Below are positions 1 to 14,848 of a stretch of 14,848 nucleotides of DNA, piece after piece. Below the pieces are notes generated by a model. That model saw only the letters and a list, made by a program, of their open reading frames with translations, was not told where the DNA came from and did no database searches. The stretch lies in the NCBI GenBank assembly GCA_964437785.1, contig CAYTJL010000046.1:32439-47286 (forward strand), read 5' to 3'. This DNA is from an uncultured Polyangiaceae bacterium (GTDB lineage: Bacteria; Myxococcota_A; Polyangia; Polyangiales; Polyangiaceae). The position numbers and the translations under genes are program-made. Numbering within the stretch: position 1 is the first letter of the stretch; each line of letters starts with the position of its first letter.

Positions 1-1259
1 CGATCGAGCCCAAGATCCTCCACCGCCTGGTGGAGGAGCTGCCCGCGCAACGGGTGATGAAGCTCTTCGAGGGTCTGCGCGTGAGCGCGCCCGAGAGCGG
101 CGTCCGCAAGGCGAACAACGCACGTACGCGCAAGCTCATCCTGCGGACCATCCTCGGCTCGCCGCGGCTCGAGCTGTGGTCGGTCAAGTACCGCGCCAAG
201 ATCGTCTCGGCCCTGCGCCACGCGTGGGGCGAGCGGAGGCTCGGTATCGTCCGGTCGATCCTGCAAAAGCCCGATGAGGCCCGCGACGCGAAGGAGCGCG
301 CGATCTTGCGCTCGCTCATCGACAAGCACGCTCCGCTCGACCGCGAGCGGGTGTACGAGTGCGTCGCGTTCATCCTCGGGATCCGCGAGCGCGTCACCCT
401 CCCTCTGCTCCTCGGCTTCCAGCTCGCCAAGGTCGATTTGACCGCCGGCCACAAGCTGCCTCCCGAGGTCTTGGAGGGTATCCGCGGCCGTTACCACAGC
501 GGCGTCGACAAGGCAGAGGTCCTCCGCCTCACCGCAGGATCGCTCACCAAGGCACAACGGCTCACCGTCCAGAAGAGGGCGGCCGAGGCGGGCGTCGTGG
601 TGGAGATGGACCCCTCGCACTACGACGCGGTCAAGCTCTATGTCTACGCCTTCGAGAACGGGCTCACCCCCGCCATCGAGGAGGCGCTCGACAAGCGGGC
701 TCGGCGCGCGGCGGCGGCCTTCCCGGCGCGTTTTTCGCGGATTGGCATCCTCGTCGACGCGTCTCGGTCCATGATGGGCGGCGGTGATCAAAAGCTCCGT
801 CCCATGGCCATCGCGCTCGCGCTCCGCGACATGCTCATGCACGTCGCAGACGCGCGCGTGGTCTACGCGGGTGGCGAGTCGGGCGCCGTCAACGGCAGCG
901 CGAGGCTCATGCGGCCGAGCGGGGACTCCTCGCTCTCCGAGGGGCTCTTGACGCTGCTCGGCGGCGACGCCGAGGCCATCTTCGTGATCAGCGATGGTTA
1001 CGAGAACCGCCCTCGCGGCCGCTTCGCGGAGACCCTCTCCGCGGCGCGGAGCATCGGTGTGAGCACGCCCGTCTACCACCTCTCTCCGGTCTTCGCGGCC
1101 GAGTCGGGCGGCGTGCGCGCGCTCGCCGAGGGCCTCGCGCCGACCCTCCCCGCGGTAAGCCCGGAGGCGCTCGGTATCTCGATGTTGCGCGGCCTCCTCG
1201 CGGCCGATCCCATTCGTGGGCTCGTGTCGCTGGTCCACGCCGCGCTCCCCCGTGTCTAA
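1..1259 (+). CDS. vWA-domain protein with MIDAS motif, 5' end probably outside the window
   Basis: The frame is open from nt 3 through the GTG at 30, so the gene likely starts upstream. The C-terminal half has GILVDASRSM (DxSxS MIDAS) and later IFVISDGYEN, typical of a von Willebrand A fold. The N-terminal part is helical and Arg/Leu-rich. A TROVE/Ro-like relationship is possible but cannot be shown by eye. Confidence 0.6.
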   Translation, partial: IEPKILHRLVEELPAQRVMKLFEGLRVSAPESGVRKANNARTRKLILRTILGSPRLELWSVKYRAKIVSALRHAWGERRLGIVRSILQKPDEARDAKERAILRSLIDKHAPLDRERVYECVAFILGIRERVTLPLLLGFQLAKVDLTAGHKLPPEVLEGIRGRYHSGVDKAEVLRLTAGSLTKAQRLTVQKRAAEAGVVVEMDPSHYDAVKLYVYAFENGLTPAIEEALDKRARRAAAAFPARFSRIGILVDASRSMMGGGDQKLRPMAIALALRDMLMHVADARVVYAGGESGAVNGSARLMRPSGDSSLSEGLLTLLGGDAEAIFVISDGYENRPRGRFAETLSAARSIGVSTPVYHLSPVFAAESGGVRALAEGLAPTLPAVSPEALGISMLRGLLAADPIRGLVSLVHAALPRV

Positions 1260-1273
1260 AGGAGGATCAAACC

Positions 1274-2227
1274 ATGTCTCTCACCGTTCATGAGATCCTT
1301 CGGGGCACCGGCGTTGGGCACGTGCAGAGCGCGGGCCTCATGCAGGTGATCCCGATCCTCGGCGAGGATGACGACACGTTTGCTCCCCCGGAGCTCACGG
1401 TCGGCACCTCGGGATATGGCACCGTCCTTCTGCGCAACGACAGTGACCGGCCCACCATCGTCCCCACGGCGGCGGGCTGGGTCGTGGCGCAGAGGGCACA
1501 GGACCACGCGATCGGCAGCGGCGTCTTCTTGAAGCCCAAGGAGAGCCGCGCCATCGACACCGCGATGTGCGTGCAGCAAGGCCAAGGCGGATACATCGCA
1601 GAGGACAAGCACGGGATGCTCATCCTGCCTGCCGCCCTCCGGCCCAAGGCGCTCAGCGTGCGGAACGAGAAGAGCTTCAACAAGCTCTGGGCCAGCATCA
1701 CCGAGCTCAACAAGAGCGTTGGTCTCACCGAGGCTGGACATCTCGAGTACTTCCTCAAGGGCTTCCAAAAGGAGCTCGATGAGTTCGTCGCCGAGTTCGA
1801 GATCGTGCCGAAGCAACGCGGCGCGATCATCCTCATCGGCGGCGAGATCGCGGGCGTCGAGATCGCCCCTTCGAGCGCCTATTGGGAGGTCGTGTGGACC
1901 CCGCTCATCCGGGTCTGCTACGGCTCTCTCGCGGCGAGCGCGCGCAAGCGCGGCCTCCAAAGGCCACAGACCCGCGCGCCGCTGCGGCTCGTCGATCGCT
2001 CGATTGACGGCATCCGCGACGCGCTCGTTCGCGCCGAAGAGGAGGAGGGTCGCTCGGTCATGCGCACGTTCGCTGCGCTGCACGGGCTGCCCTTCGAGGT
2101 CGCCGGGGCCCCCGACGACCGCATCAACGGCATCCTGCTCACCACGGTCGCGAACGCGCGGCTCAGCGGGCAAGTCGTGAGGACCGGCTTCAAGGTCCTC
2201 TACGCCTCGCTCTGCGCGGCCGCCTGA
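1274..2227 (+). CDS. conserved hypothetical protein, coupled to the vWA gene
   Basis: AGGAGG (1260-1265) lies 8 nt before ATG 1274 and directly after the TAA of the upstream gene. The codon bias is GC3-rich. Motifs GLMQVIPILGEDD, LLRNDSDRPTIVPTAAGWVV and AMCVQQGQGGY resemble, from memory only, an uncharacterised bacterial family labelled ARPP-1-like or DUF in databases. No catalytic motif was recognised. Confidence 0.6.
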   Translation: MSLTVHEILRGTGVGHVQSAGLMQVIPILGEDDDTFAPPELTVGTSGYGTVLLRNDSDRPTIVPTAAGWVVAQRAQDHAIGSGVFLKPKESRAIDTAMCVQQGQGGYIAEDKHGMLILPAALRPKALSVRNEKSFNKLWASITELNKSVGLTEAGHLEYFLKGFQKELDEFVAEFEIVPKQRGAIILIGGEIAGVEIAPSSAYWEVVWTPLIRVCYGSLAASARKRGLQRPQTRAPLRLVDRSIDGIRDALVRAEEEEGRSVMRTFAALHGLPFEVAGAPDDRINGILLTTVANARLSGQVVRTGFKVLYASLCAAA

Positions 2228-2287: not shown

Positions 2288-2361
2288 GTCCCTATCGGCT
2301 ACCTTGGATAGGCTTTCGGAACCTCACTCCGAAGAAGCGGGTTCGACTCCCGCTGGGGACG
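2288..2361 (+). tRNA. tRNA-Glu(CUC), C33 variant
   Basis: Acceptor GTCCCTA/TGGGGAC with one G.U pair. D-stem GGCT/GGCT (two G.U) with a 10-nt GG-containing loop. Anticodon stem TCGGA/TCCGA, loop ACCTCAC, anticodon 2323-2325. T-arm GCGGG-TTCGACT-CCCGC. Discriminator G followed by CC. The ends (GTCCC...GGGGACGCC) resemble bacterial tRNA-Glu. Confidence 0.8.
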
Positions 2362-2411
2362 CCGTTACGCCGAGCTGCCGAGAGACCTCTCGCTCGCGGC
2401 AGCTCTCCTTT

Positions 2412-2481
2412 CTCTCTGTCTCAGCGGACTGAGCACCGGGCTACGAACTCGGTTGTCGAGGTTCAACTCCTCGCAGAGAGG
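2412..2481 (+). tRNA. tRNA-Arg(ACG) with minimal D-arm
   Basis: Perfect acceptor CTCTCTG/CAGAGAG. D-arm CTCAG-CGGA-CTGAG (2420-2433), a tetraloop. Anticodon stem CCGGG/CTCGG, loop CTACGAA, anticodon 2443-2445. T-arm CGAGG-TTCAACT-CCTCG. Length 70 nt. Confidence 0.7.
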
Positions 2482-2487
2482 CTATGT

Positions 2488-2558
2488 ATCCCCGTCCCGG
2501 CGGCCCCGGGCGCGAGCCTCCGAAGCTCGTTGTTCGGGTTCGACTCCCGGCGGGGGTG
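2488..2558 (+). tRNA. tRNA-Arg(CCG) with minimal D-arm
   Basis: Acceptor ATCCCCG/CGGGGGT with one G.U. D-arm CCCGG-CGGCC-CCGGG (2496-2510). Anticodon stem CGAGC/GCTCG, loop CTCCGAA, anticodon 2520-2522. T-arm TCGGG-TTCGACT-CCCGG. Discriminator G followed by CC. Length 71 nt. Confidence 0.7.
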
Positions 2559-2568
2559 CCGTGATTTT

Positions 2569-2649
2569 GGGGCGAGCGCCGGCGCGCAGGTTGGTCTGTA
2601 AAACCGACGTCTTTGGACATGTTGGGTTCAACTCCCAGGCGCCCCACCA
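2569..2649 (+). tRNA. tRNA-Tyr(GUA), class II variable arm, minimal D-arm, CCA encoded
   Basis: Acceptor GGGGCG(A)/(G)CGCCCC. D-arm GCGC-CGGC-GCGC (2576-2587). Anticodon stem TTGGT/ACCGA, loop CTGTAAA, anticodon 2598-2600. Long variable arm GTC-TTTG-GAC (2609-2618). T-arm TTGGG-TTCAACT-CCCAG. A73 followed by CCA (2647-2649). Confidence 0.7.
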
Positions 2650-2655
2650 ACGTTA

Positions 2656-2724
2656 TGCAGGAAGGGAAGGTCCCGGCGGAGGCTCATACCCTCGGCTCTG
2701 CAAGTTCGATTCTTGCTCCTGCTA
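2656..2724 (+). tRNA. tRNA with CAU anticodon (Met or Ile2 type), minimal D-arm, U1.U72 mismatch
   Basis: Acceptor (T)GCAGGA/TCCTGC(T). D-arm GGGA-AGG-TCCC (2664-2674). Anticodon stem (G)GAGG/CCTC(G), loop CTCATAC, anticodon 2685-2687. T-arm GCAAG-TTCGATT-CTTGC. A73 followed by CC. Length 69 nt. Confidence 0.6.
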
Positions 2725-2725
2725 C

Positions 2726-2794
2726 CGCGATGACTCATGGTGAGGGGCGGCTCTCATAAGGCCGGCCGCGAGGGTTCGAATCCCTCCATCGCGA
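2726..2794 (+). tRNA. tRNA with CAU anticodon (Met or Ile2 type), minimal D-arm
   Basis: Perfect acceptor CGCGATG/CATCGCG. D-arm CTCA-TGG-TGAG (2734-2744). Anticodon stem CGGCT/GGCCG, loop CTCATAA, anticodon 2755-2757. T-arm GAGGG-TTCGAAT-CCCTC. A73 followed by CC. It starts 1 nt after the discriminator of the previous tRNA. Confidence 0.7.
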
Positions 2795-2798
2795 CCCT

Positions 2799-2875
2799 CT
2801 GGGTGTGGCTCAATTTGGTAGAGCGCCGGCGTCGGGAGCCGGAAGTTGGGGGTTCGAATCCCTCCATCCAGACCA
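2799..2875 (+). tRNA. tRNA-Pro(CGG), canonical cloverleaf, CCA encoded
   Basis: Acceptor CTGGGTG/CATCCAG. D-arm GCTC-AATTTGGTA-GAGC. Anticodon stem CCGGC/GCCGG, loop GTCGGGA (U33, G37), anticodon 2833-2835. T-arm GGGGG-TTCGAAT-CCCTC. C1-G72 and A73 as in bacterial tRNA-Pro. CCA at 2873-2875. Confidence 0.9.
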
Positions 2876-2876
2876 C

Positions 2877-2949
2877 GCGGGATGAGCGAGCTGGCGAACG
2901 CAGCGGTCCCACACACCGCCTCCGCAGGGTTCGATCCCCTGATCCCGCA
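2877..2949 (+). tRNA. tRNA-Val(CAC), C33 variant
   Basis: Perfect acceptor GCGGGAT/ATCCCGC. 3-bp D-stem GCG/CGC with a GG-containing loop. Anticodon stem GCGGT/ACCGC, loop CCCACAC, anticodon 2910-2912. T-arm CAGGG-TTCGATC-CCCTG. A73 followed by CC. Confidence 0.8.
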
Positions 2950-2962
2950 CCGAAGAACCAAC

Positions 2963-3038
2963 GGGGTATGATGGCCTGGTTGACCTGAGCTCTCCGATAA
3001 AGAGCTCGCGCCGCGTTCGATCCGCGGATACCCCACCA
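2963..3038 (+). tRNA. tRNA-Ile(GAU), C33 variant, CCA encoded
   Basis: Perfect acceptor GGGGTAT/ATACCCC. Weak D-stem with a TGGTTG loop. Anticodon stem GCTCT/AGAGC (extendable to 7 bp), loop CCGATAA, anticodon 2996-2998. T-arm CCGCG-TTCGATC-CGCGG. A73 followed by CCA (3036-3038). Confidence 0.8.
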
Positions 3039-3045
3039 TCACGAT

Positions 3046-3118
3046 GCGGGGCTCGCTCTCTGGCGAGAGCACCGGCGCGACGAGCCGGCCGAGGTGGGTT
3101 CGATCCCCACGCCCCGCA
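3046..3118 (+). tRNA. tRNA-Val(GAC), C33 variant
   Basis: Perfect acceptor GCGGGGC/GCCCCGC. D-arm GCTC-TCTGGCGA-GAGC. Anticodon stem CCGGC/GCCGG, loop GCGACGA, anticodon 3079-3081. T-arm GTGGG-TTCGATC-CCCAC. A73 followed by CC. Confidence 0.8.
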
Positions 3119-3123
3119 CCCAT

Positions 3124-3200
3124 GTCCATGTGGCGAAACTGGCAACCGCAACGGTCTCAGAAACCGTGATTTGAGGGTTCGAATCCCTCCGTGGACACCA
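3124..3200 (+). tRNA. tRNA-Leu(CAG) with short (5-nt) variable region, CCA encoded
   Basis: Acceptor GTCCATG/CGTGGAC with one G.U. Leu-type D-arm GCG-AAACTGGCAAC-CGC. Anticodon stem ACGGT/ACCGT, loop CTCAGAA, anticodon 3158-3160. Variable region GATTT only. T-arm GAGGG-TTCGAAT-CCCTC. A73 followed by CCA. Confidence 0.8.
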
Positions 3201-3223
3201 ACGCATCCATCATCGTCTCTCGC

Positions 3224-3298
3224 GTCCGTGTGGCGAAATTGGCAAACGCAGCGGCCTCAAACCCCGCCAATATGAGGGTTCGACTCCCTCCATGGACA
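3224..3298 (+). tRNA. tRNA-Leu(CAA) with short variable region
   Basis: Close paralog of the previous gene. Acceptor GTCCGTG/CATGGAC with one G.U. D-arm GCG-AAATTGGCAAA-CGC. Anticodon stem GCGG(C)/(C)CCGC with a C.C at 31:39, loop CTCAAAC, anticodon 3258-3260. 6-nt variable region. T-arm GAGGG-TTCGACT-CCCTC. A73 followed by CC. Confidence 0.75.
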
Positions 3299-3311
3299 CC
3301 CGCAATTTTAC

Positions 3312-3396
3312 GTCACCGTGGCGGAATTTGGCATACGCGACGGCCTGAGAAGCCGTGCCCGAAATGGGTATGTGGGTTCGACCCCCACCGGTGACA
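3312..3396 (+). tRNA. tRNA-Leu(GAG), canonical class II with long variable arm
   Basis: Perfect acceptor GTCACCG/CGGTGAC. D-arm GCG-GAATTTGGCATA-CGC. Anticodon stem ACGGC/GCCGT, loop CTGAGAA, anticodon 3347-3349. 15-nt variable arm CCC-GAAAT-GGG. T-arm GTGGG-TTCGACC-CCCAC. A73 followed by CC. Length 85 nt. Confidence 0.88.
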
Positions 3397-3471
3397 CCGC
3401 GCGAAGCAGCGCCCTTTGGAGAAAAACAAGCCATGAAAAAGAAGAGGTAGAGGTCAATAAACCTCGAGGAG

Positions 3472-3999
3472 ATGGAGAGTATGAGCGCGCAGACATTGCT
3501 CCTGACACCGTGGATGATGCCCCACAAGGTCATCTCCTGGCAGACCGCCGTCACCATGACATTTTTGGGGAAGGTCGAGGTCATCGCCGAATACGACGAG
3601 GCCATCTGCTCCCCCAGCACCAGCATCCGCACGCCGTCCGTCGTCCGGCTCAAGAGGCCGCTCGGCGACATGAAGCGTGGAGTCAAGTTCTCCCGCGTCA
3701 ACGTCTTCGTGCGCGACGGGTTCCGGTGCCAATACTGCGGTGACAAAAAGCGTGTCTCCGAGCTCAACTACGACCACGTCGTGCCCCGCGTGCAAGGCGG
3801 AAGGACCATCTGGGAGAACATCGTGACCTCCTGCTACGGCTGCAACTCTCGCAAGAGGGGCCGCACCCCGGAGCAGGCAGGAATGATGCTCCTCCGCAAG
3901 CCGGTCAAGCCGAAGTGGCTCCCGATGACCCCCGTCCTCCCACGGCACGGCAACGTGCCGGACGCGTGGGCCTCCTACTGCGCGGGCATGCTCCAGTGA
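3472..3999 (+). CDS. HNH endonuclease (small stand-alone HNH/McrA-like family)
   Basis: CQYCG...LNYDHVVPRVQGG...WENIVTSCYGCNSRK is a classic CxxC-H-N-CxxC HNH zinc-finger nuclease motif. The alternative start ATG 3481 has better spacing to GAGGAG at 3466-3471. The gene sits inside the tRNA array on the same strand. Confidence 0.88.
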   Translation: MESMSAQTLLLTPWMMPHKVISWQTAVTMTFLGKVEVIAEYDEAICSPSTSIRTPSVVRLKRPLGDMKRGVKFSRVNVFVRDGFRCQYCGDKKRVSELNYDHVVPRVQGGRTIWENIVTSCYGCNSRKRGRTPEQAGMMLLRKPVKPKWLPMTPVLPRHGNVPDAWASYCAGMLQ

Positions 4000-4015
4000 C
4001 CCGCGGCTCAAAAGC

Positions 4016-4053
4016 ACCTCGCTCGCCCCTCCCCAACGAGGGGCGAGCGGGGT
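4016..4053 (+). terminator. strong GC hairpin downstream of the HNH gene (terminator or processing structure)
   Basis: CGCTCGCCCCTC (4020-4031) pairs perfectly with GAGGGGCGAGCG (4038-4049) around the loop CCCAAC. The stem is extendable to about 16 bp. A T5 run lies at 4068-4072, 18 nt further on and not adjacent. Confidence 0.5.
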
Positions 4054-4072
4054 CGCCTCTCAACATCTTTTT

Positions 4073-4160
4073 AGAAGGTGAACCGGCCGGGGCGCCGGGC
4101 CTGTCTGGAACACAGCGCGAACGGCGATGACCGTTTGAGGATCGAGACCTCCGCCTTCTG
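4073..4160 (+). tRNA. tRNA-Ser(GGA), 8/4 (Sec/allo-tRNA-like) architecture
   Basis: 8-bp acceptor AGAAGGTG/CGCCTTCT with one G.U. Linker AA. 5-bp D-stem CCGGC/GCCGG with a 6-nt loop. Anticodon stem CTGT/ACAG, loop CTGGAAC, anticodon 4107-4109. Variable arm AACGG-CGATGA-CCGTT. 4-bp T-stem GAGG/CCTC with loop ATCGAGA. G73 followed by CC. Confidence 0.75.
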
Positions 4161-4205
4161 CCCGTCCTTACGAATGGGACCCCATCGTGAATCAGCGTCG
4201 GAATT

Positions 4206-4292
4206 GGAAGCGTGAATCGGCCGGGGCGCCGAGCCCGCCTTGAAAGCGGTGCGCACCCTTCGGGGTGTGGGGATCGAGACCTCCACCTTCCA
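4206..4292 (+). tRNA. tRNA-Ser(UGA), 8/4-like architecture
   Basis: Acceptor GGAAG(C)GTG/CACCTTCC, 8 bp plus one bulged C. D-stem TCGGC/GCCGA. Anticodon stem CCGC/GCGG, loop CTTGAAA, anticodon 4241-4243. Variable arm CACCC-TTCG-GGGTG. T-stem GGGG/CCTC with loop ATCGAGA. A73 followed by CC. Confidence 0.72.
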
Positions 4293-4316
4293 CCCCTCGT
4301 TTTTTACTGAACCTTT

Positions 4317-4404
4317 GGAAGCGTGAATCGGCCGGGGAGCCGAGCCTGCCTCGAAAGCAGTGCGCACCCCTTCGGGGTGTGGGGATCGAGACCTCCACCT
4401 TCCG
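4317..4404 (+). tRNA. tRNA-Ser(CGA), 8/4-like architecture
   Basis: Near-duplicate of the 4206-4292 gene. Same acceptor with a bulged C. D-stem TCGGC/GCCGA. Anticodon stem CTGC/GCAG, loop CTCGAAA, anticodon 4352-4354. Variable arm with a TTCG-type loop. T-stem GGGG/CCTC with loop ATCGAGA. G73 followed by CC. Confidence 0.72.
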
Positions 4405-4409
4405 CCTCT

Positions 4410-4494
4410 GGAAGCTGAATCGGCGGCGGCGCCGAGCCCGGCTGCTAACCGGTGTGTGCCTCATCGGCATGGTGTTCGACTCACCCTGCTTCCG
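4410..4494 (+). tRNA. tRNA-Ser(GCU), 8/4 architecture with 6-bp D-stem and tetraloop
   Basis: Acceptor GGAAGCTG/CTGCTTCC, 8 positions with one T.T. D-arm TCGGCG-GCGG-CGCCGA. Anticodon stem CCGG/CCGG, loop CTGCTAA, anticodon 4444-4446. Variable arm TGCC-TCATC-GGCA. 4-bp T-stem GGTG/CACC with canonical loop TTCGACT. G73 followed by CC. Confidence 0.75.
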
Positions 4495-4499
4495 CCTCT

Positions 4500-4574
4500 G
4501 CGGGGCTCGTTCAACGGGCAGGACAGTAGGCTTTGACCCTATCAATCGCGGTTCGAATCCGCGGCCCCGTGCCA
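4500..4574 (+). tRNA. tRNA-Gln(UUG), canonical cloverleaf, CCA encoded
   Basis: Acceptor GCGGGGC/GCCCCGT with G1.U72. D-arm GTTC-AACGGGCA-GGAC. Anticodon stem GTAGG/CCTAT, loop CTTTGAC, anticodon 4533-4535. T-arm CGCGG-TTCGAAT-CCGCG. G73 followed by CCA. A weak 1:72 pair plus G73 fits bacterial tRNA-Gln. Confidence 0.85.
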
Positions 4575-5651: not shown

Positions 5652-6587
5652 TCAGAACGAGCCCACCGCGAAGGCGCCGACCGACGTCGCGGTCCACGCG
5701 GGCATCACGATCACGCTCGCGGACGCGGGCTTCTTGGTCGCGCGCGCGAGGAGCACCGCGCCCGTCACCACGCCCGCGATCCCGAGGCCGCCGAGCACCG
5801 CGCCGCTCGCGCGGAGCGCGTTGATCGACGTCACCTCGCTCGTCACGTGATCGCGCTGATCCGCCGGGCACGAAGGCCGGGTCGGGCCCCCGCACAGATC
5901 ATCGAGCTTGCCGCCTTTGACGTACGAGAGCGCGAGCAACGTCGCGCCCGTGATGAGCGCCGCGCCCGACACCCCCGTGATCACCGCGCCCGGCACCACG
6001 AGCTGCGCGCCGCTCCCCGCCCCGCCCGCCGCGGGCGCGAGCGCGAGCGCGAGGCTGCGTTTGTCCTTCTCTTCGAGCGTGAACGGGAGGTCCTGCGGCG
6101 CGAGCCCAGGCGCCTCCGCGTGCAGCGTGTGCGCCCCCGGATCGAGCGGGATGCCCGCGTTGAGCCACACCTGCTTGCCGTCGATGGTGATCGTCAACCC
6201 AGGCCGCTCGTCGCCCTTCACCGTGACGATCGGGATGCGCGGCGAGAGCCCGGCGATGAGCTCCTCGGCGACCTTCGCGACCTCTTTTTGCGACGACGCG
6301 TTGGCCCGCGCGAGGCCGCGCTCGTACGACGCCTTCGCCGCCACGAGCTTGCCGAGCTTCTCGTGCGCAGCGCCCGCGCGGAGATGGAGCTGCGGCGTCT
6401 CCTTGATGGCGAGCGCGGCCTCGAACTTGGCGAGCGCCGTCGCGTAGTCCCCCTTCTTCTCGGCGTCCTCGCCCTCTTTGAACGCCTGCTTCGCGGCCGC
6501 GATCTCGTTGGGGGTCTGCGCGGTCGCAACGCTGCTCGATACGACGATCGCGAGCGCCGCCGCGCACAGGAACGTGGTGCGCTGCAT
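5652..6587 (-). CDS. exported TPR-like / membrane-anchored protein
   Basis: N-terminal signal peptide MQRTTFLCAAALAIVVSSSVATA-Q. One or two TPR-like helical pairs (KKGDYATALAKFEAAL, LVAAKASYERGL). Gly/Ala-rich hydrophobic segments near the C-terminus. Divergent from the kinase gene. Confidence 0.6.
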   Translation of the reverse strand: MQRTTFLCAAALAIVVSSSVATAQTPNEIAAAKQAFKEGEDAEKKGDYATALAKFEAALAIKETPQLHLRAGAAHEKLGKLVAAKASYERGLARANASSQKEVAKVAEELIAGLSPRIPIVTVKGDERPGLTITIDGKQVWLNAGIPLDPGAHTLHAEAPGLAPQDLPFTLEEKDKRSLALALAPAAGGAGSGAQLVVPGAVITGVSGAALITGATLLALSYVKGGKLDDLCGGPTRPSCPADQRDHVTSEVTSINALRASGAVLGGLGIAGVVTGAVLLARATKKPASASVIVMPAWTATSVGAFAVGSF

Positions 6588-6678
6588 TAGGGGCCGAGGA
6601 TGATAGCGGATCTCGGGGCGCGCTTCGCCAGGTTGCTTGACCCGAGCAGGGGCGAGCCTTCACGATGGACCGGCCCTG

Positions 6679-8856
6679 ATGAAATCCGGCGAGGTCATTG
6701 CTGGCAAATACCGGCTCGACAAGAGGCTCGGTGTCGGGGGCATGGGCGAGGTCTGGCGCGCCGCGCACACCGGCACGGAGCGGGCCTACGCCATCAAGTT
6801 CTTGCACGCGCACGCCGCCGAGTCCGCGAGCGCGCGGCACCGCTTCACGCGGGAAGCAAAGGCCTCGGCGAAGATCAACCACGCGAACATCATCGACATC
6901 TTCGACGTCGGCGAGCTCCCCGAGGGCACCCTCTACCTCGCGATGGAGCTGCTCGAAGGCGTGTCGCTCGCGGACGCGTTCCACGCCTCACCGCCGCTCA
7001 GCGTTCAAGATTTGCTCGTCGCCATGCGCGACACCGCCGAGGGGCTCGCCGCCGCGCACGCGGTCGGCATCGTCCACCGCGACGTCAAGCCGGCGAACAT
7101 CTTCCTCCACAAAGACCGCGCGACGGGCTTCGTCGCCGTCAAGCTGCTCGACTTCGGGATCAGTAAATTCGGCGACGAGACGGGCTCCACCAAGGCGGGC
7201 TCGGTGCTCGGCTCGCCCCGGTACATGAGCCCCGAGCAGACACGCCACGCCTCCAAGGTCGACGCGCGCACCGATCTCTGGGCCGCGGGCGTGATCTTGT
7301 TCGAAGGCCTCACGGGCACCTTCCCGCACGAGGGCGACAGCTTCAGCTCGCTCGTGGTCGCGATCATCACGCAGGAGCCCATCTCGATCGATCAGCTCGC
7401 GCCGGGGTTGCCCGAGCCCGTCCGCGCGATCGTGCGCGACCTCATAAAGCCGATCGACGAGCGCATCCAGACCGCGACCGAGCTCGTCGCGCGCATCAAC
7501 CAAGCGCTCACCGATCCAGCGATCGCGCGCATCCCGCTCCCTCGCCCGCTGCACCCGCCCGCGGGCGAGAGCGTGCGCACCGCGACCGGCCTCCGCATGA
7601 GGCCGCTCGGCGATCCGGGCAGCACAGGCGCGATCCGCGTCTCGCAGCCGCTCGTCGATCCAGGGAGCACAGGCGCGATCCGCGCCGCGCAACCCGGCCT
7701 GCCCGCGCCGAGCGCGACGCAAAACAGCGCTCCTCAGCCCGCGTCACGCATGTCATCGCCGGGCTTCAACGCCGCGTCCGCCGACCAGCCGCGCGCGCCC
7801 ACCTTCGGCGCTCCGCCCGCCGCGCCTACGTTCGGCGCGCCTCCGGCCGCTCCGTCGTTCGGCGCACCACCGCAACCCGGCGCGCCGATCAACCCCTACG
7901 GCGCCACGCACAAAGTCCAGAACCCGGTCGAGCTGCTCCGCGAAGCGCAGGCGATCGCCTCAAAATCAAGCCAAGCGGCGCCATCTCCGCCGCCGCCCGC
8001 GCAGGCTTCGCAGACCGAGCGGCCCGCGGCCCCGGCGATCGAATCACCGCCCGCGCCGCCGCCTCCGCCGCCGCGGCCGCCGTCCTCGTCGCTCCCCGAC
8101 GAGGCGACCGCGATCGTCGCCGACCCGAGGATGCAAGGCGATTCGCGCGCGTCCATCCCCACCGACATGCGCGCGTCGAGCGTGGGCTTCGGCGCTCCCT
8201 CGGCGACCGGATCGTTCCGCGCGACGAACAAGACGCTGCCGATCAGCGCGACCGCGCACCTCCAAGCCGAGCTCGCCAAGGCGCGCGAGGAGTTCGAACG
8301 ACAACAGTTCACCAGCGCGCCGACGACGCCGGCCTTCGATCCGCGCATCTCGCAGTCGGCCGCGCGCGTGTCCATGCCCGACCCGCTCGTCGGGACGGCG
8401 TCGGCGATGAGCCTTCCTTCGCCCACGGATCCCCGCGCGCAGGCCCCGAACGCGGTGGCGCCGATGGGCGCGCCGGCCGCGATCCCGCCTCACGACGCCG
8501 CGCCTCCGGGCACGGGATCGGCGCTCAAGATCGCGGCCCTCGTGCTCTCCGTCGTGCTCATCGGGATCGTGATCGCGATCATCGCGACGCTCCGATCGTC
8601 GAGCGGCGACGAGCGCGCGCCCGCGGCGTCCGCGTCGGCCACGCCCGTGTCGAGCGCGCCCGCGCCCGCTCCGTCGCCGACCGAGAGCGCTCCGCCCGCG
8701 CCGACGGCGAAGGCCGAAGAGCCCTCGCCGGCCGCGAGCGCGAACGCGCCCGCGCCGTCCGGGACCTCGACCTCCGCGCCCACCAAGACCAAGGCCGAGA
8801 AGGGCAAGGCGGGCTCTCCGTCGTCCAAGGTAAAGAAGCTCGGTTCGGGGTTGTGA
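6679..8856 (+). CDS. Hanks-type Ser/Thr protein kinase with Pro-rich linker and one TM helix
   Basis: G-loop LGVGGMGEVW, YAIKFL, catalytic loop HRDVKPANIF, DFGISK, GSPRYMSPEQ. These are followed by about 350 aa of Pro/Ala/Ser-rich sequence, the TM helix ALKIAALVLSVVLIGIVIAIIATL and a PAS-rich tail. ATG 6679 is preferred over TTG 6637. Confidence 0.9.
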   Translation: MKSGEVIAGKYRLDKRLGVGGMGEVWRAAHTGTERAYAIKFLHAHAAESASARHRFTREAKASAKINHANIIDIFDVGELPEGTLYLAMELLEGVSLADAFHASPPLSVQDLLVAMRDTAEGLAAAHAVGIVHRDVKPANIFLHKDRATGFVAVKLLDFGISKFGDETGSTKAGSVLGSPRYMSPEQTRHASKVDARTDLWAAGVILFEGLTGTFPHEGDSFSSLVVAIITQEPISIDQLAPGLPEPVRAIVRDLIKPIDERIQTATELVARINQALTDPAIARIPLPRPLHPPAGESVRTATGLRMRPLGDPGSTGAIRVSQPLVDPGSTGAIRAAQPGLPAPSATQNSAPQPASRMSSPGFNAASADQPRAPTFGAPPAAPTFGAPPAAPSFGAPPQPGAPINPYGATHKVQNPVELLREAQAIASKSSQAAPSPPPPAQASQTERPAAPAIESPPAPPPPPPRPPSSSLPDEATAIVADPRMQGDSRASIPTDMRASSVGFGAPSATGSFRATNKTLPISATAHLQAELAKAREEFERQQFTSAPTTPAFDPRISQSAARVSMPDPLVGTASAMSLPSPTDPRAQAPNAVAPMGAPAAIPPHDAAPPGTGSALKIAALVLSVVLIGIVIAIIATLRSSSGDERAPAASASATPVSSAPAPAPSPTESAPPAPTAKAEEPSPAASANAPAPSGTSTSAPTKTKAEKGKAGSPSSKVKKLGSGL
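7603..7684 (+). repeat. 45-nt tandem coding repeat (two copies) inside the kinase linker
   Basis: CCGCTCGGCGATCCGGGCAGCACAGGCGCGATCCGCG (7603-7639) versus CCGCTCGTCGATCCAGGGAGCACAGGCGCGATCCGCG (7648-7684). They encode PLGDPGSTGAIR and PLVDPGSTGAIR. Confidence 0.85.
7795..7872 (+). repeat. three roughly 24-nt tandem coding repeats (APTFGAPPA) inside the kinase linker
   Basis: The translation reads APTFGAPPA-APTFGAPPA-APSFGAPP. The DNA copies have diverged at synonymous positions. Confidence 0.8.
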
Positions 8857-8886: not shown

Positions 8887-9669
8887 ATGACTGCCTTCGA
8901 GCTCATCTCCGTCGAGCGATCGGGCGCGATCGCGACGGTCACCGTGCAGCGCCCCGACAAGCTCAACGCCCTCAACAGCCGCGTGATCGCGGAGCTCTCG
9001 CGCGCGTTCGGCGACCTCGTCGCGAGCGGCGACGTCCGCGCCGCGATCCTCACCGGCGCGGGCCGCGCGTTCGTCGCGGGCGCCGACATCGCCGAGATGG
9101 CCGAGCTCCCGACGGCCGAGGCCAAGCGCTTCTCGGACGCGGGGCACGCGCTCTGCGCGCTCATCGAGTCCGCGCCGTTCCCCGTGATCGCCGCGGTCAA
9201 CGGCTTCGCGCTCGGCGGCGGCTGCGAGATCGCGCTCGCGTGCGACTTCATCTACGCCGCCGACAACGCGAAGCTCGGGCAGCCCGAGGTGAGCCTCGGC
9301 GTCATCCCCGGCTTCGGCGGCACGCAGCGGCTCCTTCGACGGGTGGGCGCGGCGCGCGCGCGCGAGCTCATCTACACGGGCGACACGATCACCGCCGATC
9401 AAGCCCTCGCGATGGGCCTCGTCAACGCGGTGCTCCCCGCCGCCGAGCTGCTCGATCGCGTCCGCGCGGTCGCCGAGAAGATCGCGCAGAAGGGCCCGAT
9501 CGCGATCGCGTACGGCAAGCGCGTGATGCTCCGCGGCGAGCCGCTCGACATGCCCGCCGCGTGCGAGCTCGAAGCGCAGGCGTTCGCGTCGCTCTTCGGG
9601 ACCGAGGATCAACGCGAGGGGATGCGCGCGTTCCTCAGCAAGAATAAGCCTGCTTTCAAGGGCAAATGA
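8887..9669 (+). CDS. enoyl-CoA hydratase/isomerase (crotonase family)
   Basis: LTGAGRAFVAGADIAEM, AAVNGFALGGGCEIALACDF, QPEVSLGVIPGFGGTQRL and EGMRAFLSKNKPAF form the typical crotonase-fold signature, at the typical length of 260 aa. Confidence 0.9.
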   Translation: MTAFELISVERSGAIATVTVQRPDKLNALNSRVIAELSRAFGDLVASGDVRAAILTGAGRAFVAGADIAEMAELPTAEAKRFSDAGHALCALIESAPFPVIAAVNGFALGGGCEIALACDFIYAADNAKLGQPEVSLGVIPGFGGTQRLLRRVGAARARELIYTGDTITADQALAMGLVNAVLPAAELLDRVRAVAEKIAQKGPIAIAYGKRVMLRGEPLDMPAACELEAQAFASLFGTEDQREGMRAFLSKNKPAFKGK

Positions 9670-10923: not shown

Positions 10924-12991
10924 CCTTCTCCACGGGCTTCATCGAGGGCGACTCACCATCGCGAAAATCCGTCACCCCAGGCGGGGGCTCGGGGCCGGCG
11001 CTCGATCGATCGAGATCCAGGATCTTAGCGGCTCCCACGTACGTCTTGGTCTCGTATCGCGTCATCTTACCGATTTTGCGGACGATGTCGGCCATTCGTT
11101 CGGCTTCTTGAAGGATGATCCCGGCCGCGTTGTAAAAGGGCGTGCCCTCACCCCCGCCCCGGCGGCGGATCATCTCGGCGTACCCGAGGATGCTGGTGAG
11201 CGGCTGGTTCAGCTCGTGCGCAGCCGCCCCGGCCAGCTCGGCGATCAAGGCTTGTCGCTCGCGGGTTCGGAGCTCCTCCTGCGCCTCGGCGAGCTTCGCC
11301 TCCATGCGCATCCGATCGCGCAAATCGGTGAAGATGCCCACGGTCGCGACCGGGCGGCCGCTCTCCAAAATCTGCGCCGCCGACAAGAGCACGGGGATCT
11401 TTTCGCCGCCCTTGCCGACGACGTCGGTGCGGTAGCCCTCCAGGCGCTTGCCCTCCTTGCGCCGGATGAGCCGCATGATCTCGGTCGCGACGCCGGGCGG
11501 GTAGAGATCGCGCGCGTTCATGATGCCCACCGCGCTCCTCGCGTCGTAGCCCGTGACGCGCTCGGCCGCGCGGTTGAAGAGCAACACCTGGCCGCGCATG
11601 TCCGCGGAGATGATCGCGTCGACCGAGCTCTCGATCACGCGCTCCAAGAACTCCTTGGTCTTCACGAGCTCGGCCGCGGTCTCGCGGTCCGCGGTCACGT
11701 CGCGAAAGCTCACGAGGATGGCGCCCGAGTCCTCGCGCAGCACGCGTCCGAAGCTCACGCTGAGCACGCGCCGCGCGCTCGGATCGCGCCCGTCGCGGAC
11801 CTTGATGTCGACGAGGTGAGGGAATTCTCCGCGCCGAAAACCCTCGCGGATCTCCTCCAGCCGGCCTCGATCGGCGGGGTCGACGAGGTCGCGGAGCGTG
11901 AGCTTGCCGAGCTGCTCCTCGGTGCGCCCGACGATCGCCCGCGCGCGCGGGTTCGAGAAGAGCACCTGCCCCTCGACGTCGACGACCGCGATGCCGTCCG
12001 CGGCCGCGTGAAAGAAGTCCGCGTACGGCTCGATCGCCTTGAGCCTGCGCTCGGCCTCGACGCGCGCGAAGCTCTGCTGCTGCGTCTGATCGCGCATCGT
12101 CTGGAGGATGCGCGCGTTGCGGAGCGCGATGGCCGTCGCGTTCGCGACCGTGCGCGCGAGCGACAGCTCGTGCTCGCGCAGCGCCATCGGCTGCCGCCCG
12201 CGCAGGAAGAGCACGCCCATCGGCCGCTCCTCGTAGAGGATCGGCAGGAGCGCGAGCGATCGAAACGCGTTCTTGGGCAGGCCCTCGCGCACGATGTCGA
12301 AGAGCGGGTGCGTCGCGGTGTCCTGGATGACGAGCGGCTGCCCCGTCACCACGACCTCACGGATCTCAGGGTATTTGTCGAGGTCGATGGGCAGGTCGCG
12401 CAGATCGCGATCGTCGCTCGCGGCGACGACGTAGCCCGTCGAGTCGCCGTCGCGCACGAGCACGATGCTGCACCGATCGACGCGCGCCACCTCGGCGATG
12501 CGGCGCACGACGGTGAACAAGATGTTGCGAAAATCGAGCGTGGACGAGAGCGCCTGCGTCAGCTCGAGCACCACGCGCGCGTCGCGCTCGCGCCGCCCGA
12601 GCGCCTCGACGTACTCGCGCATGCGGAGCTGGCCGCGGATGCGCGCGATGAGCTCGGTCGGGCGGAAGGGCTTGCGGATGAAATCGTCCGCGCCCATCTC
12701 GAACGCCTTCGCGACGTCCTCGTCCGAGTCGAGCGCGGTGAGGACGAGCACCGGCACGTCGGAGAGCCTCGGATCCGCGCGCATCGATCGGAGCACGGTG
12801 AAGCCGTCCGGCGGGGGCATCACGAGATCGAGCAGCACCAGGGCGGGCACCGCGCGCGAGAGCCACGCGAGCGCTTCGCTCCCGCCGCTCGCGATGACGG
12901 TCGTGATGCCCGCGCGGCAGAGCGCCTGCGTCAACACATGGCGGCTGACCGCGTCGTCGTCGACCACCAGGACGGGGGCCTCGTTGGGCAC
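10913..12991 (-). CDS. response-regulator receiver / GAF / PAS-PAS / DHp protein lacking an ATPase domain
   Basis: REC motifs: VLVVDDD, LVLLDLVMPPPDG, VLVLTA, IRKPF. GAF-like middle region. Two PAS-like segments (ADGIAVVDVEGQVLFSN, VDAIISADMRGQVLLFN). H-box AAAHELNQPLTSILGYAEMI. No N, G1 or G2 boxes are seen in the last 100 aa or so. GTG start at 12989-12991. Confidence 0.85.
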
Positions 12992-13061
12992 GAGGTCAGC
13001 TTATCCGGTGACGGGCGCCGCAGATAGATCGAGCGCCCGCGCTCGTGTACTCTCGGCGCGC

Positions 13062-13706
13062 GTGGAGAACGAGCTCGAACAGTCTATCGGCGTCTTCGGC
13101 GAAGAGATGCTGCTTTGGATGTGCGTGCTGCGGCAATCGCCCCGCAGGCCGCCCGCGGATCACGTCATGCGCCAGGCGAACCTCCTGCTCGACGAGCTGA
13201 AGGCATCGAAGCTCGCGCAGGAGCTGCCGGTGCAGTCGGTCGACGACGGCATGTTCGCGATCGCGGCGCTGCTCGACGAGTGGGCGATGGCCCTGCCCGA
13301 TCTGCGCCCGCACTGGGCGAACTACCCGCTGCAAGCGACGCGCTGGCTCACCAACAACGCGGGCGTCGAGGTCTTTCAGCGGCTCGAGCGCGTGCGCGGC
13401 GGCCCGAAGACGATCCTCGCCACGTACATGGTGATCTTGGGCATGGGGTTCCAAGGCAAGTTCGCGCTGCCGGGCGTCGACAAGTACCACTTGGTCCAAG
13501 CGCGCAAGGACCTCGGCCTCCAGCTCGGCCTCGATCCCGATCGCGATTGGAAGGCCGGCGTGCTGCGCGCGGTGCGCATCGACCCCGAGGCCGCGCCCAA
13601 GGAGCCCTTCCACAAAACGGTCTTGTTCGGCCGGATTTTGGCGATTTTCTGTGCGGTCTCGGCGGTGATCACCTTGGCCATCATCCTTTACTCGAACCTC
13701 GCATGA
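13062..13706 (+). CDS. DotU/TssL-family protein (type VI/IVB secretion membrane anchor-like)
   Basis: FAIAALLDEWAMAL...W, GVEVFQRLERVR, ILATYMVILGMGFQGKF and a single C-terminal TM helix (ILAIFCAVSAVITLAIILY) match the DotU/TssL pattern. The start is GTG 13062 or ATG 13107. The upstream part of track ORF 12465-13706 is antisense to the REC gene and not coding. Confidence 0.7.
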   Translation: MENELEQSIGVFGEEMLLWMCVLRQSPRRPPADHVMRQANLLLDELKASKLAQELPVQSVDDGMFAIAALLDEWAMALPDLRPHWANYPLQATRWLTNNAGVEVFQRLERVRGGPKTILATYMVILGMGFQGKFALPGVDKYHLVQARKDLGLQLGLDPDRDWKAGVLRAVRIDPEAAPKEPFHKTVLFGRILAIFCAVSAVITLAIILYSNLA

Positions 13707-14848
13707 GCGCCTTCAGCTACGAGCTCGCAGCGGTCCTCTCGGCGGTCACGCGCGTTCACCCTGGTCCCGAGGGCGCGTACGCGATCCCTTGGTACCTCGT
13801 CATCGGTCACCCCGGCTCGGGCAGGACGAGCGCGGTCCGCGCGATGAGCCTCACGTGGGACGGCAACGAGAGCCCCGTCGCGACGGGCGCGCCCGCGCCG
13901 CTCTGCACGTATTGGATGCCCAAAGAGGCGGTCTTCATCGAGCCGGAGCGCCAAGTGCTCGGGCAAGATCGACAAGCCGGGCTCCTCGGCGAGCTCTGCA
14001 CCGACCTCAAGACGCTGCGCCCGCGCGAGGCGCTCGACGGCATCCTCCTCGTGCTCAACGTCGCCGACTTCATCGACTTCACCGAGGGCACGCTCGACAC
14101 CTACTCGAACGGCCTGCGTAAATTCTTGGTCGAGGTCGGCCAGGCGCTCGGCGAGGACGTGCCCACGTACGTGGTGCTCACGCGCTACGACACGCTCTGG
14201 GGCTTCGCCGAGGTGTTCCAATGGAACCACGAGCGCAAGCGCGAGGAGCCGTGGGGCTTCACCCTGCCGCCCGACACGCCGAGCCAAGACTCGCTGAAGC
14301 GCATCGAGAAGGAGCTCGACGGCCTCAACGCGCGCTTCGAATCGTTCTGCATCGAGCGGCTCTCGTCGGAGGATTTGCCCGAGCACCGCATCCGCGCGTT
14401 CCAACATCTCGCCGAGGTGCGCGCGCTGATCCTCAAGCTCAAGCAGGTCTTCACCGTGCTCGGGATGGCCAACGCCTACGAGCGCGCGCCGTGGTTCCGC
14501 GCGCTCGCGGTGGGCAGCGCCCAACCGGGCACGGGCGACAAGATGCGCGCGGGCGTGCAGCGCTTCTTCAACATGGGCCTCACGCAAGGCCCGTCGCAGC
14601 TCGCGAACAGGCCCGGCGGCCTGCCTTTTCATGCGTTCACGAGCACGGTCCTGCTCGCCGAGAAGGACATCGTCCCGACCAAGAAGCGCTGGCGCGACGA
14701 CATGATCATCATCATCTGCTTCGTCGTCGGCGGCCTCTTGTGGCTCGGCGCGATCGTCACGGGGATCGTGTTCGCGTCGATGGGCCCGCAGGACAACAAA
14801 CCGGCGCCCATCAAGACCACGCCCGCCAAGACCGCGCCCAAGAAGTGA
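13703..14848 (+). CDS. IcmF/TssM N-terminal NTPase-like P-loop protein, short form with C-terminal TM helix
   Basis: ATGA start/stop overlap with the DotU-like gene. IPWYLVIGHPGSGRTS (Walker A), TYWMPKEAVFIEPE, LDGILLVLNVAD (Walker B-like) and PTYVVLTRYDTLWGFAEVF follow the TssM/IcmF NTPase pattern. TM helix MIIIICFVVGGLLWLGAIVTGIVF. The TGA stop falls exactly at the window end. Confidence 0.7.
   Translation: MSAFSYELAAVLSAVTRVHPGPEGAYAIPWYLVIGHPGSGRTSAVRAMSLTWDGNESPVATGAPAPLCTYWMPKEAVFIEPERQVLGQDRQAGLLGELCTDLKTLRPREALDGILLVLNVADFIDFTEGTLDTYSNGLRKFLVEVGQALGEDVPTYVVLTRYDTLWGFAEVFQWNHERKREEPWGFTLPPDTPSQDSLKRIEKELDGLNARFESFCIERLSSEDLPEHRIRAFQHLAEVRALILKLKQVFTVLGMANAYERAPWFRALAVGSAQPGTGDKMRAGVQRFFNMGLTQGPSQLANRPGGLPFHAFTSTVLLAEKDIVPTKKRWRDDMIIIICFVVGGLLWLGAIVTGIVFASMGPQDNKPAPIKTTPAKTAPKK

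Follow-up and report, generated by a model that had tools for sequence, protein, structure and literature searches.

Introduction

The single leucyl-tRNA synthetase (LeuRS) of Streptomyces coelicolor charges a type I tRNA-Leu(CAA) about half as efficiently as it charges a class II isoacceptor, and the gene for this tRNA could not be knocked out (PMC6614811). Bacterial tRNA arrays have been discussed in mycobacteria as anti-defence elements (PMC12803027), and the tRNA regions of phages rescue infection from tRNA-depleting defences (PMC11555353; PMC10264068). Here we describe a 14,848-nucleotide (nt) stretch of DNA from an uncultured Polyangiaceae bacterium (assembly GCA_964437785.1, contig CAYTJL010000046.1, positions 32,439 to 47,286; hereafter the window) in which two tRNA-Leu genes with short variable loops stand beside a canonical class II tRNA-Leu gene, inside a dense tRNA gene array. 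In our assessment these two genes are likely to be genuine leucine isoacceptors for CUG and UUG that have lost the long variable arm, within a horizontally spread, phage-like array of a Polyangiales-type myxobacterium. Short tRNA-Leu is already known as a kind; what this locus adds is a before-and-after comparison across syntenic arrays, together with a probable anticodon-shifted duplicate.

Structure of the two short leucine tRNA genes

Genes were called with ARAGORN and with the Rfam model RF00005 (gathering threshold 29 bits), and the three adjoining leucine genes are abbreviated as t1 (Leu-CAG), t2 (Leu-CAA), and t3 (Leu-GAG). Both programs place them where a first-pass annotation, made from the letters of the window without database searches, had put them (Table 1). 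The short genes exceed the gathering threshold as full-length cloverleafs matched over model positions 1-71, with scores of 60.9 bits for t1 (E 2.4e-11) and 51.9 bits for t2. The score of t3 is 52.7 bits, and within the window only Pro-CGG (62.1 bits) ranks above t1. The variable loop is GAUUU (5 nt) in t1 and CAAUAU (6 nt) in t2, both short of the more than 10 nt that make a variable arm long, and t3 carries the 15-nt arm GCCCGAAAUGGGUAU with its CCC/GGG stem. These lengths agree with the first-pass reading of 5-6 nt between the anticodon and T stems of the short genes and of an adjoining class II Leu-GAG.

Direct reading likewise bears out a Leu-type D arm with a stem of three base pairs (bp) and A73 in both short genes. 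All three genes share the D stem G10-C25/C11-G24/G12-C23 along with U8, A14, A15, G18G19, U48, U54-A58, and A73, the last of these at 3197 in t1 and at 3298 in t2. The D loop of the short genes, AAAYUGGCAAN, holds A14, A15, G18G19, and A20a, and the T arm is canonical in both. A search pattern made of the Leu-type D arm, a short spacer, and the T arm matches only t1 and t2 within the window, with 0 matches expected from 200 shuffles. The minimum-energy fold of t1, with its encoded CCA, is the cloverleaf itself (-24.3 kcal/mol).

Between t1 and t2 the acceptor stem differs at two pairs, A5-U68 versus G5.U68 and U6.G67 versus U6-A67. The first-pass annotation had called these reciprocal changes and taken them as a sign of purifying selection on structure. 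Pairing is indeed preserved through G.U, but the differences are two single-sided transitions rather than double compensatory changes, and the sole truly compensatory difference between the two genes is pair 27-43 (A-U versus G-C). Taken alone, the acceptor changes are weak evidence of selection; the strong evidence is the family-wide covariation described below.

Syntenic relatives keep the arm at the Leu-CAG position

Minicystis rosea DSM 24000 (locus L123; CP016211.1, 8253407-8274360) was located by a scan, with one genome per species, for the ARPP-1 domain protein encoded at the upstream edge of the array, and its ARPP-1, 62% identical, is the nearest relative. Two further high-GC contigs, L136 and L142, emerged when metagenomes were searched with the T-arm/acceptor part of the short genes. 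In M. rosea, ARPP-1 lies amid 54 ARAGORN tRNA calls in 20 kb, mostly upstream of it, which cover most amino acids; the genome paper, with a total count of 88 tRNAs, has no discussion of an array (PMC8436480). The part of this syntenic unit downstream of ARPP-1 has the gene order of the window. Around the leucine genes, all three relatives read Val-GAC, Leu-CAG (class II), Leu-GAG (class II), Leu-CAA (type I), HNH, and the window reads Val-GAC, Leu-CAG (short), Leu-CAA (short), Leu-GAG (long), HNH.

At the Leu-CAG position the gene is class II in all three relatives, where Leu-CAG and Leu-GAG measure 83-85 nt, which argues that the short Leu-CAG of the window is a lineage-specific loss or replacement of the arm. 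The neighbouring t3 is orthologous to the Leu-GAG that begins GTCACCG in L123, L136, and L142. The short Leu-CAA of the relatives belongs to a different lineage, with the acceptor sequence GCTCGGA or GCCCGGG. Over their whole length, t1 and t2 align to the class II Leu-CAG of the relatives save in the variable region, where about 9-10 nt are cleanly missing, and among 254 tRNAs from all fetched arrays their nearest neighbours are class II Leu-CAG genes (88-91% over aligned columns). The acceptor and T arms of t2 are identical to those of the M. rosea class II Leu-CAG, and its anticodon loop, CUCAAAC, is the M. rosea loop CUCAGAC with G36A. On these comparisons, t2 is probably a CAG-to-CAA anticodon-shifted paralog.

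The simplest account appears to be a history in three steps. A class II Leu-CAG would have become type I through a deletion of about 9-10 nt, or a related short copy would have replaced it; the short Leu-CAG would then have been duplicated in tandem; and one copy would have changed from CAG to CAA through G36A, with the older Leu-CAA of the relatives' type lost and its place taken. Replacement by a type I copy is a live possibility because the D loop of t1, AAACUGGCAA, and its variable loop GAUUU resemble those of short leucine tRNAs in four unrelated contigs, one of them viral. A recent HNH insertion that displaced the ancestral Leu-CAA was also considered and rejected, as HNH occupies the matching position in each of the three relatives.

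The leucine genes of these arrays differ in the spacing between A15 and G18 as well. Class II genes mostly have one nucleotide there (AAUGG), with t3 and the M. rosea Leu-GAG as exceptions in which the gap is longer, and short genes have two (AAYUGG), with a Leu-TAG of contig L140 as the sole exception. This pattern suggests that D-loop length co-varies with the presence of the variable arm. The M. rosea array further holds a 72-nt class-I-like tRNA with the serine anticodon CGA (7943-8014) and a 75-nt Leu-TAG (12289-12363) whose 4-bp D arm is not of the leucine type.

Short leucine tRNAs in phages and family-wide covariation

The D-arm/short-spacer pattern matches at least 120 contigs of the IMG/VR collection. 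Among the matches listed, 97 of 121 are tRNAs of 74-78 nt to which ARAGORN assigns leucine anticodons (TAA 39, CAA 23, TAG 19, GAG 14, CAG 1, AAG 1); the GC content of the viral loci listed ranges from 31 to 66%, and their short leucine genes are 72-78% identical to t1 and t2. The T5-like Salmonella phage S124 (NC_048013) has an annotated 74-nt tRNA-Leu-TAG whose neighbours are an HNH gene and a tRNA-Ser of normal form (92 nt). The first-pass view of arm loss as a feature known chiefly in animal mitochondria is contradicted by these many phage cases, a T5-like annotation among them, and by the type I tRNA-Leu(CAA) of S. coelicolor. Short tRNA-Leu is less rare than that view held, and it is common in phage tRNA clusters.

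In S124 the HNH gene (L133 1038-1499) abuts the short tRNA-Leu. The commonest short Leu-TAA sequence among the IMG/VR matches listed had no match in cultured phages. A distant blastn match, annotated as tRNA-Arg(tcg) in a Streptomyces phage, was dropped as a relative of the leucine genes, since it proved to be a class I tRNA of the ordinary sort, having G73 and a D stem of 4 bp. Another Streptomyces phage, Yaboi (NC_048730), has two genes annotated as tRNA-Tyr(gta), separated by about 75 nt; the gene at 5759-5841 (83 nt) has a long arm and that at 5916-5988 (73 nt) has none, and the same tRNA cluster contains a gene for a VWA-domain protein.

In an effort to measure selection across the family, we assembled 57 distinct short leucine tRNAs from the window, the arrays, the viral contigs, and phage S124. 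With the D arm and T loop fixed by the selecting pattern, a restriction that tempers the result by leaving the acceptor, anticodon, and T stems as the only free tests, standard pairing holds in 98.2% of cells, and changes on both sides are seen at 18 of 20 pairs. The covariation score is 0.83 as compared to 0.21 for shuffled sequences, with 0.83 reached in none of 500 shuffles, and pairing falls to 34-47% when partners are slid by 1-3 columns. A73 and U48, positions that the search pattern left free, are invariant in 57 of 57.

Leucine identity, charging, and the specificity of arm loss

Escherichia coli LeuRS requires A73, A15-U48, G18G19, and A20a; it can do without the anticodon and without the arm, and variants that lack the arm are active (PMC9976931; also PMC2377443). 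The tertiary core (U8-A14, A15-U48, G18G19, A20a, U54-A58, and a 3-bp D stem) is present in t1 and t2, which pass every tRNA-Leu identity feature that was tested except the class II arm, a hallmark of structure that is no identity element for E. coli LeuRS. Their leucine D arm, A73, A15-U48, and leucine anticodons, together with class II tRNA-Leu(CAG) as nearest relatives, uphold the first-pass assignment to leucine. With all identity elements kept, the host LeuRS, whose gene (leuS) lies outside the window, would be expected to charge both short tRNAs.

Losing a class-defining feature could alter synthetase recognition, and CUG has been naturally reassigned in yeasts; the short tRNAs might on these grounds accept a different amino acid in place of leucine, which would recode CUG and UUG. 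We consider this highly improbable, and recoding by another synthetase was rejected on identity elements. A73, the Leu-type D arm, and A15-U48 are retained, the 3-70 pair of the short genes is C3-G70 with no G3.U70, the CAG and CAA anticodons do not fit the synthetases that read anticodons, and the same architecture bears all six leucine anticodon types and few others.

Bacterial tyrosyl-tRNA synthetase also uses the long arm. To compare the three class II families, short and long genes were counted in 120 of the viral loci listed, which have a median of 12 tRNAs each. Serine genes number 2 short and 142 long and tyrosine genes 1 short and 56 long, both unbiased ratios, and leucine genes number 163 short and 38 long, a ratio biased by the choice of loci for their short leucine genes. 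Short and long leucine genes occur together in 26 of the 120 loci, as they do in the window. Leucine alone goes short in such clusters, presumably because LeuRS dispenses with the arm while the serine and tyrosine synthetases use it; the arm would thus be expendable in tRNA-Leu and not in tRNA-Ser or tRNA-Tyr.

Several observations weigh against functional isoacceptors. In t2, a C31.C39 mismatch leaves a 4-bp anticodon stem, the cloverleaf (-23.4 kcal/mol) lies 2.1 kcal/mol above an alternative fold, position 38 is C rather than A, and CCA is not encoded (ACC is followed by C); these features could be compatible with decay. Constraint may also be relaxed on parts of the array, since only 7 of its 12 ARAGORN-called tRNAs reach the Rfam gathering score in a standard scan. 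A scan for sigma-70-like promoters upstream of the array gave no candidate. In vitro, the type I tRNA-Leu(CAA) of Streptomyces stayed uncharged with E. coli LeuRS, so charging of the short tRNAs by a given host LeuRS is not guaranteed.

The short genes, t2 above all, could accordingly be viewed as decaying or non-functional copies in which deletion of the arm is tolerated thanks to housekeeping tRNA-Leu elsewhere. The mismatch, the alternative minimum-energy fold, and the missing CCA of t2 would fit such copies, as would the several array tRNAs that score low or go undetected and the view that mycobacterial arrays are non-essential (PMC12803027). Nonetheless, we judge decay to be unlikely. The 60.9-bit t1 has a perfect cloverleaf and an encoded CCA, the leucine identity elements are all intact in t1 and t2, and the short architecture is kept with compensatory changes across 57 distinct sequences. 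The C31.C39 mismatch itself recurs in phage type I Leu-CAA genes, for example in the L022 group.

The array and its protein genes

The first-pass annotation overlooked that the leucine genes belong to an array that has spread horizontally. In order, the genes called by ARAGORN are Glu-CTC, Arg-ACG, Arg-CCG, Met, Pro-CGG, Val-CAC, Ile-GAT, Val-GAC, Leu-CAG, Leu-CAA, Leu-GAG, and Gln-TTG. All 12 are on one strand (+), and with the atypical genes they amount to about 18 in 2.3 kb, above the minimum of two tRNA genes per kb that defines array density (Tran et al. 2015); array units have at least 20 genes, and the window begins just upstream of the array. Their anticodons fit GC-rich codons, and the GC content of the window is 62-75%. 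The single strand and the spacers of 1-2 nt make it probable that a polycistronic transcript of the array is made and then processed. A megablast search of the array against phage and plasmid collections returned no match, and exact-protein look-ups had as their sole match a 4.3-kb Logan contig identical to the left end of the window.

Table 1 Features of the window, in order of position.
Feature	Position	Strand	Basis and remarks
vWA/MIDAS-like protein gene	30..1259 (5' end beyond window)	+	66% identity to L123 8235-10001
ARPP-1 domain protein gene	1274..2227	+	PF20208, 1.8e-29; upstream array edge
tRNA gene array	2288..4574	+	12 ARAGORN genes and about 6 atypical; spacers down to 1-2 nt
Tyr(GUA)-like tRNA	2568-2649	+	Long arm, 4-bp D stem and tetraloop, encoded CCA; missed by ARAGORN
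CAU-anticodon tRNA-like gene, 68 nt	about 2657-2724	+	GGGA/UCCC D stem, 3-nt loop; missed by ARAGORN
t1, tRNA-Leu(CAG), type I	3124..3200 including encoded CCA (body 3124-3197, 74 nt)	+	ARAGORN, Rfam
t2, tRNA-Leu(CAA), type I	3224..3298, 75 nt	+	ARAGORN, Rfam
t3, tRNA-Leu(GAG), canonical class II	3312..3396	+	ARAGORN, Rfam; 15-nt variable arm
HNH endonuclease gene	3481..3999	+	Pfam HNH/HNH_5, phrog_16726; inside array after Leu genes
Four tandem tRNA-Ser-like genes	4070..4493	+	Sequence reading, folds, permissive Rfam; none called by ARAGORN
Ser/Thr kinase	6637-8856		Between array and type VI genes
Enoyl-CoA hydratase	8887-9669		Between array and type VI genes
Type VI secretion: open reading frames (ORFs) with a DotU domain and an IcmF-related N-terminal domain	12465-14848		Right window end

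Directly upstream of ARPP-1 in 10 of 10 genome loci is the gene for a vWA-like protein, which shows a weak match to VWA_CoxE, below cutoff, and nothing significant in Pfam, PHROGs, or a PDB sequence search. In four loci, ARPP-1 homologs are found within or next to large tRNA arrays. The vWA-like and ARPP-1 genes together occur in or beside arrays of 18-54 tRNA genes in M. rosea (L123 8235-10957), in a metagenome-assembled genome of Planctomycetota, where the pair adjoins 42 tRNAs, and in a 204-kb IMG/VR viral contig, where it is inside the tRNA region; this contig matches one binned as Bacteroidales. The link of ARPP-1 to arrays is not universal: 4 of the 10 genome loci are without tRNA in the fetched flanks, which reach up to 10 kb and in three of them end at contig ends. 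The paper that describes the ARPP family leaves tRNA arrays unmentioned and treats ARPP-1 as a conflict-system-type gene (PMC9503650). The HNH copies of L123, L136, and L142 are 74-77% identical and stand at the same place, and more distant HNH homologs occur in six viral tRNA clusters.

The chromosomal flanks differ between the two genomes, with kinase, hydratase, and type VI secretion genes in the window and TldD/PmbA and E2 acyltransferase genes in M. rosea, and the first downstream ORFs of the two share no similarity. The array module looks mobile, because its flanks differ and the protein pair occurs in a viral contig. The window itself has a bacterial chromosomal context and contains no phage structural genes.

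The atypical genes of the array were recognised apart from the standard calls, through a permissive Rfam scan together with reading of the sequence. Each tRNA-Ser-like repeat is roughly 90-110 nt, and the four anticodon loops read GGA, UGA, CGA, and GCU; the group has in common a long variable arm, a D stem of 5-6 bp closed by a small loop, and acceptor and T stems of 8 and 4 bp, respectively, and three of the four have the unusual T loop AUCGAGA. The Rfam tRNA-Sec model scores 35.3 bits on 4410-4493, below gathering. With this Sec-like 8/4-type fold, the genes resemble the (8/4) tRNA-Ser/allo-tRNA group (Mukai et al., PMC5389517). At the place that matches 2568-2724 of the window, M. rosea carries a tandem pair of Met genes. 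Just past the HNH stop codon, at 4020-4061, both strands have a strong GC-rich hairpin and, after it, a run of T; this could be a terminator that works in both directions, set between the HNH gene and the Ser-like repeats.

Possible role of the array and wider meaning

Our best guess, and the most likely function on the analogy of phage tRNA regions, is a backup tRNA supply. The array would be a second, sequence-divergent set of tRNAs that keeps translation going when housekeeping tRNAs are depleted or cleaved, and we infer for it a corresponding anti-defence role. A different use of the short tRNAs, outside ordinary decoding, might be as decoys or resistant substitutes against a toxin that targets class II tRNAs, or as donors in tRNA-dependent biosynthesis. 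Such uses would suit the company that the array keeps, with the conflict-system-type ARPP-1 (PMC9503650) and an HNH nuclease; phage tRNAs counter tRNA-cleaving defences, and the eukaryotic Schlafens are a case of selective targeting of class II tRNAs. We regard a role outside decoding as improbable, more so than decay. No long-arm-specific bacterial nuclease was identified in this analysis, and the array spans many amino acids with the ordinary anticodons of GC-rich codons, like a translation set. The idea of resistant substitutes overlaps with the reading as leucine isoacceptors of a backup set and does not replace it.

More speculatively, and with doubt on our part similar to that about decay, arm loss might be adaptive in mobile backup sets, and not a neutral simplification, by evading an effector of the host or of a competitor that recognises class II tRNAs. 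The array with the vWA-like and ARPP-1 genes, perhaps together with HNH, might then form a self-contained module for translation rescue or tRNA maintenance, shared by myxobacteria, planctomycetes, and jumbo phages.

For leucine, the division between class I and class II tRNAs is porous in bacteria and phages. Through three syntenic relatives that keep the arm, the change is caught at one array position, followed by what appears to be a CAG-to-CAA shift that replaced an older isoacceptor, and the locus offers a clean natural example of tRNA gene remodelling. Myxococcota and Planctomycetota join the lineages known for giant tRNA arrays, and M. rosea DSM 24000, a sequenced type strain, is usable for work on array tRNAs. 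Annotation pipelines and isotype models should allow for short tRNA-Leu in phage and array settings. That short tRNA-Leu exists would hardly surprise a specialist; the arrays of myxobacteria and planctomycetes, with the protein set conserved in them, might be of more interest.

Comparison with known systems

The type I tRNA-Leu(CAA) of S. coelicolor (PMC6614811) resembles the genes of the window in its short loop, its A73, and its place beside class II isoacceptors. It shares the CAA anticodon with t2, and its loop has 5 nt like that of t1, with t2 one nucleotide longer. Type I is defined by a 5-nt loop that includes nucleotide 48 and by coexisting class II isoacceptors, a definition that covers the short genes here, with the class II Leu-GAG adjoining. 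Compared by description, the S. coelicolor gene is the sole reader of UUG and has C48, whereas the window genes have U48, belong to a redundant mobile array, and include one that reads CUG.

Phage short tRNA-Leu genes are like t1 and t2 in A73, in the D arm GTGGCGRAAYTGGYA, and in a loop of 5-6 nt whose last nucleotide is U48, often with an encoded CCA, and they too sit in dense clusters, often with an HNH gene and a long tRNA-Leu. They differ in sequence, at 72-78% identity to t1 and t2, and the copy in the window is chromosomal, without phage structural genes in view.

Prokaryotic tRNA array units (Tran et al. 2015, PMC4758250; Mycobacterium, PMC5966550, PMC12803027) are likewise confined to one strand, dense, redundant, and sequence-divergent, with signs of horizontal spread and a proposed anti-defence role. 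Those papers cover Firmicutes, Acidithiobacillus, cyanobacteria, and mycobacteria, whereas the array described here is from Myxococcota and related ones are from Planctomycetota. Arrays of this type are set apart by the vWA-like, ARPP-1, and HNH protein set, and short tRNA-Leu goes without mention in the three papers (PMC4758250, PMC5966550, PMC12803027).

With the tRNA-Leu of animal mitochondria, the window genes share a short variable region and the identity elements A73 and A14. In mitochondria a dedicated LeuRS acts on tRNAs whose D/T-loop interactions are reduced, whereas t1 and t2 keep the full G18G19/T-loop core.

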